A stretch of DNA of 64,000 nt from an uncultured Candidatus Saccharibacteria bacterium. Its GTDB lineage: Bacteria; Patescibacteriota; Saccharimonadia; Saccharimonadales; CAIOMD01. The notes beneath the pieces were generated by a model, which was given only the letters and a program-made list of their open reading frames with translations, made no database searches and had not been told where the DNA came from. Every line of letters begins with the position of its first letter. Position 1 is the first letter of the stretch. The stretch spans positions 66,309-130,308 of the forward strand of contig CAZMHM010000002.1 in assembly GCA_964566135.1 (NCBI GenBank), given 5' to 3'. Shown piece after piece: positions 1,885 through 46,400 of the stretch. The position numbers and the translations under genes were made by a program.

Positions 1885-2447
1885 AACAAGTCCTTTTTGG
1901 GGTTGGTTTTTTCTTTGATGAACGCAAGAATTTTGTCAATGTTAGGCTGATATCCATTATTCGTATCTACCTCAAGCAATGGTAATTCTGTCGAAATTGG
2001 GCTAGCTGTATTACTAAGATTGCTATGATGAAATTTCGCCCTAGCTCTAAGCTCATCATCATTTAAAACTTTGCCTTTGTCGCCCCGTGAAAGCTCACGT
2101 TCCAAATGACGCTCAATCGGATTATCACAATACGTATGAATAATAACTATTCTTGCTTTTTGCGAAAGCTTGTCTAAAATATCTTGTTCGGAAATACCTT
2201 TTTGCAAAACGTGATCCACGACAATCGAAATACCATAATCTGCACACGCAAGTAACAGCGGTATAAATGCTTCATGCAAAGTTTTATGGCGGTCATTCGG
2301 CGCACCAATAGTTAGTTTTGCACCACCATGGACCAAGTCGCTCGAAATATGAGGAATATATAATTCTTTTGAAATACGCTCTGCGAGCGTTGTCTTACCT
2401 GAGCCCGGGGCGCCGCTCACATAGATAATGATTGGCAGTATTGCCAT
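1881..2447 (-). CDS. P-loop NTPase / small-molecule kinase-like ATPase
   Basis: Walker A GAPGSGKTT near N-terminus; 188 aa; overlapping stop/start with neighbours. Confidence 0.6.
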   Translation of the reverse strand: MAILPIIIYVSGAPGSGKTTLAERISKELYIPHISSDLVHGGAKLTIGAPNDRHKTLHEAFIPLLLACADYGISIVVDHVLQKGISEQDILDKLSQKARIVIIHTYCDNPIERHLERELSRGDKGKVLNDDELRARAKFHHSNLSNTASPISTELPLLEVDTNNGYQPNIDKILAFIKEKTNPKKDLL

Positions 2448-3904
2448 TACACCCCCAGTTGTTTTTTGATGAGTTCTTGGACTTTAGCTGGGTTAGCTCG
2501 GCCTTGGCTTAGCTTCATAACTTGCCCAACCAAAAAACCAATCGCTTTCATTTCACCAGCTCGCACATCATCGGCGGCTTTTTCATTTTCAGTCAGTACC
2601 TGCGTGACAATCATAACTAGTTCACCTTCGTCTGATACCTGCAGCAAATTTTTATCTTGTGCAAGCTTTTCGGGGTCAGAATTTTTTACTACAACTTCTG
2701 GTAATAGTTCTTTAGCTGCCGTAGAGCTTAGGCTATTCGCATCAACCATACTTGCCAATTTTACGAGTTGTTCAAGGCTATCAGCTACCTGCGCCCAAGT
2801 TAGCTGTTGTTCTGCAACGAGCCGCTGTAGCTCGCCAAGACACCAGTTGGCGATAGTTTTGGCAGCTTTGTCATCATGTGCTTCGGTTGTGTAGCGAATA
2901 ATCTCCGCTAGCTCTGGTTCTTCCAAAATCGTATTAATTTGTGAATTATCTAACCCAAATGCTGCAAACTTTTCACGTAAGACTGTGGGCAGCAGTGGCA
3001 TTGTTTCGGCAATAGTTGCGACTAATGATTTATCAATGCTGATTGGCGGAATATCTGGATCTGGAAAATAGCGATAATCGTGGGCGTCTTCTTTTGTTCG
3101 CTGGCTAAATGTTGCCTGCTTGGCATCATCCCAACCACGAGTTTCTTGTACAATCTTTTCACCTTTTTCGAGCAACGCAATCTGCCGTTTAACTTCGTAT
3201 TCAACAGCCTTTTCAACACTCTTAAAGCTATTGAGATTCTTTGTCTCGCTCCGCGTCCCGAGCACATCTTTATCTGCACTAACGCTCACATTAACGTCAA
3301 AACGCATATTACCGTGGTATAAATCCGCCTCTGAAACATCAGCATATTTCATTAGTAAGTACAATTCGTGGGCGTATGCCTTTGCTTCTGCGGCACTATG
3401 CATATCTGCTTCGGATACGATTTCGAGCAGTGGCGTGCCGGCACGGTTTAAATCAACTAACGAATAATCTTCGCCTGCGGGGTGTGTACTTTTACCGGCG
3501 TCTGCCTCGAGATGGGCACGCGTAATGCGAACAGTTACTGTGCTTCCATCATCGAGCGGTGCGTCCACGACGCCAACGCCAACAACTGGCCGTTCAAACT
3601 GTGTAATTTGATACCCTAGTGGTAAATCTGGGTAAAAATAATGCTTACGATCAAAATGACTGATCTCAGCAATTTCGGCTCGTAGCGCCAGACCTGCGCG
3701 AATCGCTAGGGTCACTGCTTCGCCATTAAGTACTGGTAATGTACCGGGTAAACCAACACACAACGGGCTAATCAATGTGTTTGGCTCTGCGTCACGGGCA
3801 TCATTATCAATGCCGGCGAACAACTTGGTTTTAGTTTTAAGCTGCACATGGCATTCGATACCAATTGTTGGATAGTATTTGCCGTTAAGTAGATACTTGT
3901 CCAT
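2447..3904 (-). CDS. gatB: Asp/Glu-tRNA(Asn/Gln) amidotransferase subunit B
   Basis: Full-length GatB-like sequence (YYPTIGIECHVQL..., C-terminal YqeY-like tail). Confidence 0.95.
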   Translation of the reverse strand: MDKYLLNGKYYPTIGIECHVQLKTKTKLFAGIDNDARDAEPNTLISPLCVGLPGTLPVLNGEAVTLAIRAGLALRAEIAEISHFDRKHYFYPDLPLGYQITQFERPVVGVGVVDAPLDDGSTVTVRITRAHLEADAGKSTHPAGEDYSLVDLNRAGTPLLEIVSEADMHSAAEAKAYAHELYLLMKYADVSEADLYHGNMRFDVNVSVSADKDVLGTRSETKNLNSFKSVEKAVEYEVKRQIALLEKGEKIVQETRGWDDAKQATFSQRTKEDAHDYRYFPDPDIPPISIDKSLVATIAETMPLLPTVLREKFAAFGLDNSQINTILEEPELAEIIRYTTEAHDDKAAKTIANWCLGELQRLVAEQQLTWAQVADSLEQLVKLASMVDANSLSSTAAKELLPEVVVKNSDPEKLAQDKNLLQVSDEGELVMIVTQVLTENEKAADDVRAGEMKAIGFLVGQVMKLSQGRANPAKVQELIKKQLGV

Positions 3905-4311
3905 TACAACACTCCCAAGTCTTTAAAGGTTTTGTAATAGCCTTGCAAGGCTACTTTCATCTCTTTTTCGGATGGTTCGTGCAATGTTTCGTGGACAATT
4001 TTGTTGCGTAATTTGTGAGCTTTCCAAACTTCATCTTTATGCTGCAACTTTGCTTTTGCGGCAACGAGCCGTTCAGCCATCGTATTGCCATAATAACCAA
4101 GACACTTTAAGGCTTCGTCAAGAAGTTTATCAGCGTGAATAATGCTCATGGGTTGCGTTTTTTTATCCTTAAACAGTAGCATGACGTCATTCCACTCGTT
4201 TTTGAAATGGGTTTTGTCAATACCACGAGCTGGGGTGCGATTTGTCAAACTAATAATGACAAGGATGACTACCGACAGAACAATAATCATGATGATAGTC
4301 GTTATGCTCAT
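3904..4311 (-). CDS. membrane-anchored small protein with C-terminal HEPN-like (Rx4H, DUF86/HepT-like LRNKIVHET) motif
   Basis: N-terminal TM helix (IIMIIVLSVVILVIISL); C-terminal KAHKLRNKIVHETLHE resembles HepT RNxxxHxY motif; start/stop overlap gatA and gatB. Confidence 0.55.
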   Translation of the reverse strand: MSITTIIMIIVLSVVILVIISLTNRTPARGIDKTHFKNEWNDVMLLFKDKKTQPMSIIHADKLLDEALKCLGYYGNTMAERLVAAKAKLQHKDEVWKAHKLRNKIVHETLHEPSEKEMKVALQGYYKTFKDLGVL

Positions 4312-5729
4312 TTTGTTAGCTCCTCGTATGCACTAGCAAAGCCGAGCAAAGCTTTATCTGCCCGTTGCGGTGCCATGAGCTGCAAGCCCACTGGTAAGCC
4401 GTCTGACTCACCGGCAGGAATACTTATTGCTGGAATACCTACCAGATTTACGGCTACAGTCATAATATCCGCAAGATACATCTGCAATGGGTCGTCAACA
4501 TTCACGCCAAGCTTAAATGCCGTCATCGGAGCAGTAGGGCCAAGTAGAAAATCAACGTGTTTAAAGGTTTCTGCAAATTCATTGATGAGTTTTGTACGAA
4601 CCGTCTGGGCTTTCTTGTAATACGCATCATAGTAGCCGCTACTTAACACATATGTACCAATCATAATGCGGCGTTTATTTTCGCTTTCAAAACCGCGTTC
4701 GCGGGCTAACTCGTAGCTTCCGTCTAAATCTTCGGCATCTGGCGCGGCGAGGCCATAACGCTGGCCATCGTAGCGGCTTAAATTACTACTGACTTCTGCT
4801 GGGACGATAATGTAATAACACGCCAGGGCTAGGCTAAGCGATGGCAGGCTTACCTCTACAATTTCGGCGCCAGCTTTTTTATATACGTCAATTGCCGACT
4901 CGATATTTTTCCGAACACCAGCATCTAGGCCATCACTAAAATATTCTTTGATAACACCGATTTTCTTACCCTTAATAGTGGTATCCAGCTCAGTGTAACT
5001 CGAGGCGTCTCGTTCGATAGTTGTGCCGTCACGACTATCGCGACCGCTCATAACATCGAGTACTAAAGCCGCATCTACAACCGAACGAGTTAGTGGGCCA
5101 ATGACGTCCGTTGAGCTTGCCATCGCTACCACACCATTACGCGAAACTAATCCATAGGTTGGCTTAAGGCCTACAATGCCACAAAAACTTGCTGGTAAGC
5201 GTATCGAACCACCAGTATCAGTACCAAGAGCAAACGGTGCCAACTCTAATGCTACTGCCGCACCTGAACCACCGGATGAACCGCCCGGAACACGCGTTTT
5301 GTCATGCGGGTTGAGTGTCGGGCCAAACGCACTGTTTTCGGTAGAAGAACCGTGTGCGAATGCATCAAGGTTTGCTTTTGCAACCATGATTGCGCCCTCG
5401 GCTTCTAGCTTCTCAATTGCGGTTGCCTGATATGGCGCTTCAAAGGGTTCTAAGATATGACTTGCTGCAGTTGTTTTGGTGCCGAATGTCAAAAAATTAT
5501 CTTTTGCTATAAATGGAATACCCGCTAAACGGCCGACAGCCTCGCCCCGAGCGATACGCGCGTCAACCTCTAGAGCTCTACTTTTCGCTCGTTCGGTCGC
5601 AGTTTGCAAAATTGCGTGATATTCACTCTTGGCATCAATAGCAGCAAGCGATTGTTCGACAAGTTGCACGGCACTCGTCTTGCCGCTTTGCACGTCAGAT
5701 ACTAAATGAGCAATTGGTTTCCAGCTCAT
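4308..5729 (-). CDS. gatA: Glu-tRNA(Gln) amidotransferase subunit A
   Basis: Amidase signature GGSSGGSGAAVA, catalytic Ser/Lys context. Confidence 0.95.
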   Translation of the reverse strand: MSWKPIAHLVSDVQSGKTSAVQLVEQSLAAIDAKSEYHAILQTATERAKSRALEVDARIARGEAVGRLAGIPFIAKDNFLTFGTKTTAASHILEPFEAPYQATAIEKLEAEGAIMVAKANLDAFAHGSSTENSAFGPTLNPHDKTRVPGGSSGGSGAAVALELAPFALGTDTGGSIRLPASFCGIVGLKPTYGLVSRNGVVAMASSTDVIGPLTRSVVDAALVLDVMSGRDSRDGTTIERDASSYTELDTTIKGKKIGVIKEYFSDGLDAGVRKNIESAIDVYKKAGAEIVEVSLPSLSLALACYYIIVPAEVSSNLSRYDGQRYGLAAPDAEDLDGSYELARERGFESENKRRIMIGTYVLSSGYYDAYYKKAQTVRTKLINEFAETFKHVDFLLGPTAPMTAFKLGVNVDDPLQMYLADIMTVAVNLVGIPAISIPAGESDGLPVGLQLMAPQRADKALLGFASAYEELTK

Positions 5730-6019
5730 CCAATCATCCTCTTAACTTTAAACTGTCCATCTTGCTGTTGTGGTGCATTTTTAAGCAAGTCACTTGGCGT
5801 AACTTCGTAGTTAATAAGCTCATCTGCGCGAACGACATTCATGAGGCCTGTTACTTGACTAGTTGGTTCTAGACCACTGACGTCAACATCTTGCAGTTGC
5901 TCGACGTATGCCAAGATTTCACTCAGCTCATTTTGGTACCGAGCTACTTCATCATCAGTCAATCGTAAACGGCACAAGCGAGCAAGCTTACGAATATCCG
6001 CAGCACTAAATTTTGTCAT
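5726..6019 (-). CDS. gatC: Glu-tRNA(Gln) amidotransferase subunit C
   Basis: 97 aa, LARLCRLRLTDDEVARYQNELSEILAYVEQL typical GatC. Confidence 0.9.
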   Translation of the reverse strand: MTKFSAADIRKLARLCRLRLTDDEVARYQNELSEILAYVEQLQDVDVSGLEPTSQVTGLMNVVRADELINYEVTPSDLLKNAPQQQDGQFKVKRMIG

Positions 6020-31054: not shown

Positions 31055-31133
31055 TGGTCGGAGTGATTGGATTTGAACCAATGACCTCTTTGTTACGAGA
31101 ACAAAGCGCGCTACCGAGCTGCGCTACACCCCG
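31055..31133 (-). tRNA. tRNA gene with encoded CCA; anticodon uncertain (TCG/Arg-like if read centrally); anticodon arm non-canonical on manual fold
   Basis: Acceptor CGGGGTG/CACTCCG, U8, D-arm GCGC-AGCTCGGTA-GCGC, T-arm ATTGG-TTCAAAT-CCAAT, A73-CCA; anticodon region CTTTG-TTCTCGTAA-CAAAG (9-nt loop or 6-bp stem). Confidence 0.6.
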
Positions 31134-31244
31134 CTTGGGCTACAAACCCAAGTTGGCGGTGGCCGGTCGCCACCTACTACAACCATCCTTTTGTTCCGCT
31201 CGGGTAAATCCACCGCACGAAACTAGGGAACAACCGGCCACCAG

Positions 31245-31318
31245 TGGCCCCGACAGGATTTGAACCTGCGACCTCTTGGCTCTTCGCCAAGCGCGCTACC
31301 AAGCTGCGCTACGGGGAC
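31245..31318 (-). tRNA. tRNA-like gene (no encoded CCA); anticodon loop CGAAGAG lacks U33 - identity undetermined/possible pseudo-tRNA
   Basis: Acceptor GTCCCCG/CGGGGCC (one T-C mismatch), D-arm identical to neighbour, T-arm GCAGG-TTCAAAT-CCTGT. Confidence 0.5.
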
Positions 31319-45122: not shown

Positions 45123-46226
45123 TTACAAAGTTTTTACAATTTGCTCCCAAGGATACTCAGCATGCCCAAAATGACCATAGGACGCAGTTTGTTGATAAAT
45201 CGGCCTTCGCAACTGAAACGCGGTAATAATTCCCGCCACCGAGCAGTCCAGTAAGTCATCTGCAAAGTTGCGAATAGTTTGTTTTTCGGTTGTTTCGGTG
45301 TTAAACGTTTCAATTTCTTTAATAATCGGCGCTTTGGCTCCAATATAATATGCAAGACAAACCTCGGCACGCTTAGCGAGGCCTGCCGCGACAATGTTTT
45401 TGGCAATGTATCGTGCGGCATACGCTCCAGACCTATCTACTTTACTTGGATCTTTGCCAGAAAATGCACCACCGCCTACTCTTGCTGCACCTCCGTAGGT
45501 GTCAACAACAATCTTTCGTCCCGTAAGACCGACATCGCTTGCTGGGCCAGGCTGGTGCCAAACACCAGTACCATTAATAATGACTTCTTTTGGTAGCGAT
45601 AAACCATAAGCACCAAGCACCGGACTGATAACACATTCTGTTATATCTTTCGTGACTTGTTCTAGCGAGACATCTTCGTTGTGTGGTACAGCAATGGTGA
45701 TATGTTCGGTTTCATACTTGGTGCCATCAAATGCGAGGACTACCTGCGACTTACCGTCGGGACGCAAATAGGGCAATGTAGTAGCTCTGGCTATATCAAT
45801 TGCATGGGTCAACTTATGGGCAACAGTAATTGCTAGGGGAGTAAGTTCTGGGGTCTCATCGGTGGCATAGCCATACATAAGTCCCTGGTCGCCAGCGCCA
45901 CCATCATCAACGCCAACAGCAATTTCAGGAGATTGCTCATGCAGTAAATTAATTACTGGGGATGTGCTACTGAACCCCCACTCGGGATGTACGTACCCCT
46001 CTTTAGCGATTACCGAGCGAGCAATAGCCTCGTAGTCAAGCTGTGCTTTAGCGGTAATTTCCCCGGCAAGTACAATATGATCTTGGGCAAGCAACGTCTC
46101 AGCCGCAACTCGCGAACTTGGGTCAGCTGCAAGCGCCGCGTCTAAAATTGCATCACTAATCTGGTCGGCAAGTTTATCTGGATGCCCTGCACAGACTGAC
46201 TCACTGACAATATATTTTTTTGGCAT
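45123..46226 (-). CDS. metK: S-adenosylmethionine synthetase
   Basis: GHPDK, GGGAFSGKDPSKVDRS motifs; GAAAGG SD. Confidence 0.95.
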   Translation of the reverse strand: MPKKYIVSESVCAGHPDKLADQISDAILDAALAADPSSRVAAETLLAQDHIVLAGEITAKAQLDYEAIARSVIAKEGYVHPEWGFSSTSPVINLLHEQSPEIAVGVDDGGAGDQGLMYGYATDETPELTPLAITVAHKLTHAIDIARATTLPYLRPDGKSQVVLAFDGTKYETEHITIAVPHNEDVSLEQVTKDITECVISPVLGAYGLSLPKEVIINGTGVWHQPGPASDVGLTGRKIVVDTYGGAARVGGGAFSGKDPSKVDRSGAYAARYIAKNIVAAGLAKRAEVCLAYYIGAKAPIIKEIETFNTETTEKQTIRNFADDLLDCSVAGIITAFQLRRPIYQQTASYGHFGHAEYPWEQIVKTL

Positions 46227-46269
46227 AAAAAAACCTTTCATAATGCTCACGCGAGTGCTGCACCTATAA

Positions 46270-46400
46270 AAGGATGAAACATATATCTTTCCGCATACGC
46301 GGACTAGATGGGGCACCGTTCCGATTAAGGGGTGGTTGCCGGCGGGTCATAGAGCTAGTTCTCTCACCGCACTCACGATATCAAATTGTTAACTGCTAAA
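46270..46400 (-). promoter_or_regulatory. candidate SAM riboswitch (SAM-I/IV clan) in metK leader
   Basis: Minus-strand leader contains GCCGGCAACC...GGUGCCCC core resembling SAM-I/IV; about 200-nt 5' UTR. Confidence 0.4.

Follow-up and report, generated by a model that had tools for sequence, protein, structure and literature searches.

A conserved gene between gatA and gatB of Saccharibacteria encodes a predicted membrane-anchored protein of probable HEPN fold

What does a small membrane protein do in the operon of GatCAB, an enzyme that is regarded as soluble and built of three subunits? The question is raised by a contig of an uncultured Candidatus Saccharibacteria bacterium (GenBank assembly GCA_964566135.1, contig CAZMHM010000002.1, positions 66,309 to 130,308), in which an open reading frame (ORF) of 135 amino acids (aa), here called X, lies between gatA and gatB (3904..4311, minus strand). 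All coordinates given without a locus name refer to this stretch of 64,000 nucleotides (nt), the window, and all genes and features named below are on its minus strand (-). The ORF listing, the homologues and AlphaFold modelling agree that X is a real, conserved gene. Its soluble part is very probably a divergent HEPN-superfamily domain that forms a new family. As to its role, we favour with moderate confidence the reading that X is a housekeeping accessory of GatCA(B), namely a membrane-anchored, basic, cytoplasm-facing HEPN domain that would be coupled to gatA and bind RNA, the enzyme or both.

The identities of the neighbouring genes were established by Pfam and NCBIfam scans. The string is headed by gatC (97 aa, 5726..6019; PF02686 E 2.3e-22, TIGR00135), followed by gatA (473 aa, 4308..5729; TIGR00132 E 2.3e-170), X and gatB (485 aa, 2447..3904; NF004012 E 1.7e-171). 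The initial annotation of this DNA had described X as splitting gatA from gatB with start and stop codons that overlap both neighbours, and this is what the sequence reads: the ATG of X (4311-4309) and the TGA of gatA (4310-4308) form an ATGA overlap, and the TAA of X (3906-3904) shares a nucleotide with the ATG of gatB (3904-3902) in a TAATG overlap. Putative Shine-Dalgarno sequences were read at both junctions, GAGGAG for X within the 3′ end of gatA (4320..4325, 8 nt before the X ATG) and GGGAG for gatB within the 3′ end of X (3912..3916, 7 nt before the gatB ATG). With the ATGA overlap and a Shine-Dalgarno sequence of its own, X appears to be translationally coupled to gatA.

A word-indexed search returned 160 homologues, 128-144 aa long; few of them have names, and these are 'hypothetical protein' entries from Saccharimonadales or from soil 'PAT' metagenomes. 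Searching 1.84 billion cluster representatives with a hidden Markov model yielded 2968 representatives of the family at E <= 1e-3 and 1877 at E <= 1e-10, and a GTDB scan with one genome per species confirmed X in at least 533 stretches, of which 80 loci were kept; their labels are nearly all Saccharibacteria, Saccharimonadales or Patescibacteria. Synteny could be scored in 86 related loci. All 86 have the order gatA-X-gatB, whose conservation across the lineage the initial annotation had put forward as a point to check, usually within the wider order uvrB...gatC-gatA-X-gatB-(nudix)-galU...dnaE. The gatA-X junction is a 4-nt overlap in 58 of the 86 loci and lies between -11 and +17 nt in 80, and the X-gatB junction lies between -4 and +3 nt in 55.

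Four Patescibacteria loci outside the Saccharimonadia carry a longer X of 187-218 aa with a longer N-terminal membrane region (L090:5001-5657, L091:5001-5585, L092:4001-4564 and L093:601-1230). It starts 0-22 nt past gatA in all four. The arrangement in these distant Patescibacteria is ligA-gatC-gatA-X (ligA was seen in L090-L092), and gatB is not next to X in any of the three loci with downstream sequence (L090-L092). Since gatB is not adjacent to the distant X while gatA stays in place, the conserved linkage is to gatA and not to gatB. X is vertically inherited in the Saccharibacteria and in the other Patescibacteria lineages sampled. In L090, an ORF resembling LAGLIDADG proteins and a serine recombinase are found downstream of X in place of gatB. 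One locus labelled 'Candidatus Limnocylindrales' (Chloroflexota; L051, DATHYB010000021.1) contains the complete Saccharibacteria-type string uvrB...gatC-gatA-X-gatB-nudix-galU, and this contig is probably mis-binned; a 'Limnocylindria' label is also attached to P0391.

The prediction of an N-terminal transmembrane helix in X was borne out. Residues 3-23 (4243..4305) are modelled as a helix by AlphaFold and are hydrophobic, with a mean Kyte-Doolittle hydropathy of 3.1 in the best stretch of 19 residues. The charge bias around the helix points to an N-out/C-in orientation: across 246 full-length family members, lysine plus arginine averages 0.14 ahead of the helix, against 3.4 over the 12 residues behind it, and 99% of the members are predicted N-out/C-in by the positive-inside rule. 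In the longer variants, sequence inspection showed that two hydrophobic segments come after an N-terminus that is very basic, an arrangement that would again place the domain in the cytoplasm. The soluble domain has an isoelectric point of 9.3 in the X of the window and a family median of 9.6, and a domain this basic would be compatible with nucleic-acid binding.

AlphaFold2, run with the family alignment, returned a mean predicted local distance difference test score (pLDDT) of 89.7 for full-length X; for the soluble part, residues 28-135, the pLDDT was 93.3 and the predicted template modelling score 0.85. The model contains a four-helix domain at residues 33-132 (3916..4215), composed of H1 (33-47), H2 (50-70), H3 (92-107) and H4 (115-132), with an insert at residues 71-91 that includes a short helix (78-84). 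When this domain model was compared with the PDB using Foldseek, the top 21 matches were all HEPN proteins (probability up to 0.99, TMq 0.52-0.65), including AF_0298 (2hsb), the HepT toxins 7ae6, 7ae8, 6m6w, 7bxo, 8xdj and 8xeh, 4nqf and AbiV (9bj7). Searching with the full-length model led to the same result. A structural comparison with HepT, as the initial annotation had proposed, thus came out on the side of a HEPN fold. By the published definition (Anantharaman et al., 2013; PMC3710099), a HEPN domain has an insert that separates H2 from H3, carries an acidic residue in H2 and has its Rx4-6H where H3 ends or where the H3-H4 loop begins. In the model of X all three marks are seen: R102-H107 ends H3, residues 71-91 form the insert and D61/D65 lie in H2. 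A further line of evidence comes from SEML1_0535, a hypothetical protein of 139 aa encoded between gatA and gatB in Southlakia, which is likely the counterpart of X in that organism and for which the DPAM assignment is e1wtyA1 (Wang et al., 2023; PMC10633639, Table S2). Chains of 1wty are among the Foldseek matches of X, beside HEPN proteins.

Profile searches were less decisive than the models. The X protein of the window has no significant match in Pfam, NCBIfam or PADLOC scans. Below the gathering scores, a Pfam scan of 147 diverse members returned HEPN_Swt1 most often (19 members, best E 1.6e-4); HEPN_RiboL-PSP was found in 12 of the 147 members (best E 0.006) and HEPN_Cthe2314 in five, and the remaining families mostly look like weak matches to the transmembrane segment. 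In two distant members the HEPN_Swt1 match spans nearly all of the profile. The PADLOC profile CARF_HEPN matched the family consensus with an E-value of 0.018, whereas PADLOC gave no match for native X proteins, and neither phmmer nor the family profile found a HEPN match among PDB sequences. The family profile also matched the C-terminal domain of RanGAP1 (E 0.003) over X residues 22-95, which comprise helices 1-2 and the insert and exclude the dyad region; this match was judged to be due to chance.

Among Pfam families, the Swt1-like HEPN family (PF18731) appears to be the closest relative of X. Shared with this HEPN_Swt1/Abi2-like clade (PMC3710099) are the four-helix bundle, the H2-H3 insert, the Rx4H motif that closes H3 and the acidic residue in H2. 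The X family differs in its near-universal W40, G75, R81, W96 and H99, its members stay below the Pfam gathering score, and it resides in a vertically inherited translation operon instead of a defence or conflict locus. Fusion to a single transmembrane helix is a trait that X has in common with bacterial HEPN proteins in the survey of Anantharaman and co-workers (2013; PMC3710099).

The more specific assignment of X to DUF86/HepT in the initial annotation did not hold. There is no match to PF01934, no tyrosine of the HxY type and no MNT partner gene, and hhalign comparisons of X with 40 real DUF86 proteins gave P-values of 0.03-0.075, below significance; the only alignment obtained sets GE...W...R[ND]K[IL][IV]H in register. 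The DUF86 set was assembled with a DUF86 consensus, which retrieved 120 real PF01934 proteins and itself barely matches the HepT sequences in the PDB. The HepT/DUF86 type VII toxins nevertheless include the best structural matches of X (PDB 7ae8, 6m6w and 8xdj; probability 0.94-0.99, TMq up to 0.65) and have a similar size and the motif W...R[ND]K[IL][IV]H in register. X differs from them in reading H-E-x in place of HxY, in its membrane anchor, in the missing MNT partner and in being neither mobile nor patchy in its distribution. Another label, DUF4145, was assigned by ProtNLM to SEML1_0535 (PMC10633639, Table S2). There is overlap between DUF4145 and a HEPN family, and part of the DUF4145 proteins have a transmembrane helix (PMC3710099). 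PF13643 (DUF4145) had no match in 20 individually scanned members of the X family, and it does not rank with the families found most often when 42 and 147 members were scanned. The DUF4145 relatives carry their WP signature in the transmembrane domain (PMC3710099), while X has an occasional W53-P54 in the soluble helix H2. The scans thus do not support membership of X in DUF4145.

The HEPN motif had been recognised in the segment KLRNKIVHET, residues 100-109 of X. A bare Rx4-6H is uninformative since 41% of shuffled X sequences contain one (RNxxxH occurs in 0.8%), and the significance of the motif rests on its conservation. R102, N103 and H107 (R102-N-K-I-V-H107, an Rx4H of the form RNxxxH at the C-terminal end of H3; 3991..4008) do not vary among 42 homologues, the most distant of which have 37% identity, and are conserved at 89-91% in the 246 full-length members, and the distant versions outside the Saccharimonadia retain RNxxxH. 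The position two past the histidine is variable and never tyrosine; in the window the motif reads RNKIVHET. The initial annotation had named two observations that would speak against HEPN, the lack of a significant profile match and a motif that is unconserved among orthologues; the profile matches did stay below threshold, while the motif sits at the end of H3, where a HEPN motif is expected, and about 90% of the sampled orthologues keep its residues.

Other positions are conserved even more strongly. G75 is found in 100% of the 246 members, D61, W96 and H99 in 99% each, W40 in 97%, A60 and L63 in 96%, L68 in 95% and D65 and R81 in 94%. The most conserved stretch is the helix-2 motif A60-D61-K-L-L-D65-E-A-L68 (4108..4134), which coincides with the acidic position of HEPN H2, and W96-x-x-H99 in H3 (4015..4026) is near-universal. 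From their spacing (i, i+3, i+7, i+11), W96, H99, N103 and H107 would lie on one face of H3.

That the most conserved residues (W40, D61, G75, R81, W96 and H99) are not those of the canonical dyad could also be expected if the HEPN likeness were convergent and X were a small single-pass membrane protein with an unrelated helical-bundle function that rides in the gat operon. The frequency of a bare Rx4-6H in shuffles fits this as well, and two of the observations that count against our reading belong here: no member scanned reaches a curated Pfam or NCBIfam threshold, and every Foldseek E-value is 0.14 or higher, in a fold class in which helical bundles can converge. On the other hand, the top 21 structural matches are HEPN proteins throughout and not generic bundles; X fits the HEPN definition in its four-helix topology, its H2-H3 insert and where its motif is placed, HEPN families dominate the sub-threshold Pfam matches, and DPAM, working independently, reached the same assignment for SEML1_0535, the likely orthologue. 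We consider convergence improbable.

Is X then a nuclease? R102 and/or H107 are absent in 28 of the 246 members, which instead have sequences such as HNLAKKILE or HKLKKRIIE; two of the 28 look truncated or frameshifted. Three dyad-less members were looked up, and in all three the gene occupies the slot between gatA and gatB and shows the same overlap of 4 nt. In a divergent dyad-less group the helix-2 motif is still conserved and W96 and H99 are invariant. Judged from these alignments, the dyad seems to be strongly selected in most lineages and dispensable in some, around a universal core of W-H and helix-2 Asp. Because the dyad was lost while the gene and its position were kept, the role shared by all members is probably not classical Rx4H catalysis. 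Loss of the dyad is no proof of lost catalysis, since the HepT of Legionella uses a Mg2+ site on helix 2 and not its RX4HXY motif (PMC11586414).

The main rival to our reading draws on the same residues. X could be a free-standing housekeeping or regulatory ribonuclease (RNase) of the HEPN type, close to the membrane, that cuts tRNA or mRNA, for instance the gat transcript, and is merely co-transcribed with the gat genes without any role in transamidation. The invariance of RNxxxH over most of the family, distant Patescibacteria versions included, would be well explained in this way, as would the combination of a HEPN fold with a basic domain, and membrane-tethered HEPN RNases have been predicted to degrade RNA at membranes (PMC3710099). 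It explains less well why the gene is still found between gatA and gatB although at least seven clades have lost the dyad, and why the 4-nt coupling to gatA is so persistent that it outlasts the relocation of gatB, which exceeds what co-transcription needs. We take this possibility seriously but regard it as unlikely.

HEPN domains also occur in toxins and defence effectors, and the initial annotation had considered an addiction module. X would then be a HepT-like RNase or a Csx28-like pore that is hard to lose because it sits in an essential operon. The closest solved structures, HepT toxins and AbiV, agree with this, the dyad is intact in the X of the window, and the N-terminal transmembrane helix followed by a HEPN domain recalls Csx28. 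Csx28, the membrane HEPN accessory of Cas13b, is a small protein with an N-terminal transmembrane helix and a divergent HEPN domain, an architecture that X shares. Csx28 was absent from the top 50 PDB Foldseek matches of X, and no CRISPR-Cas context was found in any X locus examined. The remark of the initial annotation that no antitoxin is visible was corroborated: gatA and gatB flank X in every scored locus, and neither an MNT gene nor another antitoxin gene is adjacent. A tyrosine of the HxY type, as required for AMPylation, is missing, native X proteins have no PADLOC match, and transposon insertions in the likely Southlakia counterpart are depleted and not tolerated (see below). The gene was also retained in several clades after the dyad had been lost. 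Together with vertical inheritance, a synteny that is the same in every related locus examined and free of mobile context, and the reach of the family into other Patescibacteria, this speaks against an addiction module, and we consider it very unlikely that X is a toxin-antitoxin or defence module of any kind.

The other option offered in the initial annotation, a domesticated HEPN with a tRNA-related role, is the best reading of the sequence evidence, and it is the one that we develop here as an accessory of GatCA(B). X would be made together with GatCAB, because its translation is coupled to that of gatA. Its HEPN domain may bind RNA, most plausibly misacylated Glu-tRNAGln and Asp-tRNAAsn or acceptor ends, and/or the enzyme, and could thereby keep transamidation on the inner side of the membrane. 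In lineages with an intact dyad, RNA-phosphate chemistry or binding is probably retained on the W96-H99-N103-H107 face, with RNA cleavage as an added activity, while the role under common selection across lineages would be binding or tethering, or would reside in the site of the helix-2 Asp and H99. One HepT reportedly trims the 3′ ends of tRNAs, and a role of X at the acceptor end of tRNAs is therefore conceivable. Small proteins that are encoded or act with GatA/GatB are known in GatC, the fungal GatF and Hp0100 of H. pylori, an accessory of the tRNA-dependent amidotransferase, and the coupling of X to gatA suggests co-assembly. In a Pfam scan X resembled none of GatC, GatF and YqeY in sequence or fold, and it differs from them in being membrane-anchored.

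Fitness data are available for the likely Southlakia counterpart. SEML1_0535 was classed as a core, Patescibacteria-enriched family, and in transposon sequencing (Tn-seq) it was scored GD/GD/ES, with normalised reads falling from 127 to 5.9 and 2.8 over the passages (PMC10633639). Insertions in gatA and gatB likewise drop out (PMC10633639).

A bolder version of the proposal makes X a fourth component of the amidotransferase, which would assemble co-translationally with GatA, anchor the transamidosome to the membrane, grip misacylated tRNAs and, where the dyad is intact, clip those that have not been amidated. We put this forward as speculative and rather doubtful. If true, X would give organisms reliant on the indirect pathway an in-built means of securing both fidelity and localisation.

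Besides the profile thresholds and the Foldseek E-values discussed above, several points weigh against X as a GatCA(B) accessory. The link between X and GatCAB is one of guilt by association only. The depletion in Tn-seq may stem from polarity on gatB, which overlaps the gene, and SEML1_0535 was paired with X by size, position and annotation and not by sequence. Dyad-less members are spread over several clades, with at least seven state changes on a neighbour-joining tree, which argues against a universal role as an RNase. Finally, in about 25 of the 86 loci, roughly a quarter, X and gatB are set apart by a spacer of 70-270 nt or by an additional small ORF, so that coupling to gatB is not universal.

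The spacers of 70-270 nt between X and gatB, found in about a quarter of the related loci, are non-coding and contain long hairpins made of tandem heptamer repeats and their complements (for example L021:4333-4447, L035:4408-4522, L041:4408-4527 and L047:4408-4531). Folding energies of the hairpins are about -17 to -47 kcal/mol, and the repeat sequence varies by lineage. No conserved peptide or small ORF and no Rfam match was found in these spacers. The hairpins may be operon-internal stabilisers, attenuators or repeat elements. As to extra ORFs at this junction, two loci contain one for a DUF3850 protein of 92 aa (L088:5399-5677 and L089:1974-2252), and a third contains one of 69 aa that matches no family (L002:5423-5632).

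Downstream of gatB, the window contains genes for a P-loop kinase, a Nudix hydrolase and a GalU-like transferase. The P-loop kinase (188 aa, 1881-2447) sits between gatB and the Nudix gene, has a TAATG overlap with the gatB stop and matches chloramphenicol-phosphotransferase, AAA_33 and zeta-toxin-like families; a counterpart in the same slot was found in one related locus only (L045, 24% identity). Elsewhere in the window, an S-adenosylmethionine (SAM) riboswitch (RF00162, 46280-46384), whose score of 52 bits exceeds the gathering score, lies across the listed start of a 397-aa ORF (45123-46316), and the true start of this ORF is therefore probably located further downstream. Two tRNA genes, tRNA-Arg(TCG) at 31055-31133 and tRNA-Leu(AAG) at 31244-31318, are arranged in tandem. 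A leucine tRNA with A34 is unusual for bacteria, in which A34/inosine is normally restricted to tRNA-Arg(ACG).

Parts of this picture were known before. HEPN domains, including versions fused to transmembrane segments, have been described (PMC3710099), and the fold of SEML1_0535 is listed in a supplementary table of the Cell 2023 paper (Wang et al., PMC10633639), the main text of which is silent on this protein. Our literature searches found no description of a link between HEPN and gatB, of a gatA-linked HEPN family or of a Saccharibacteria gene placed between gatA and gatB, and no experimental data on an association of X with GatA, GatB or GatC or on transamidation. New are the coupling to gatA that is conserved in Saccharibacteria and other Patescibacteria, the housekeeping instead of conflict context, and the repeated loss of the dyad in place. 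Clades with and without the Rx4H dyad at one and the same genomic slot constitute a natural experiment, and because the likely counterpart gene is present in the sole genetically tractable Saccharibacterium, the naturally competent Southlakia epibionticum, the hypothesis is directly testable. If it is true, a core step of translation would have gained a lineage-specific extra, a membrane-anchored HEPN partner whose gene is coupled to gatA, and this would be a clear case of the RNase fold of conflict systems being recruited to housekeeping.

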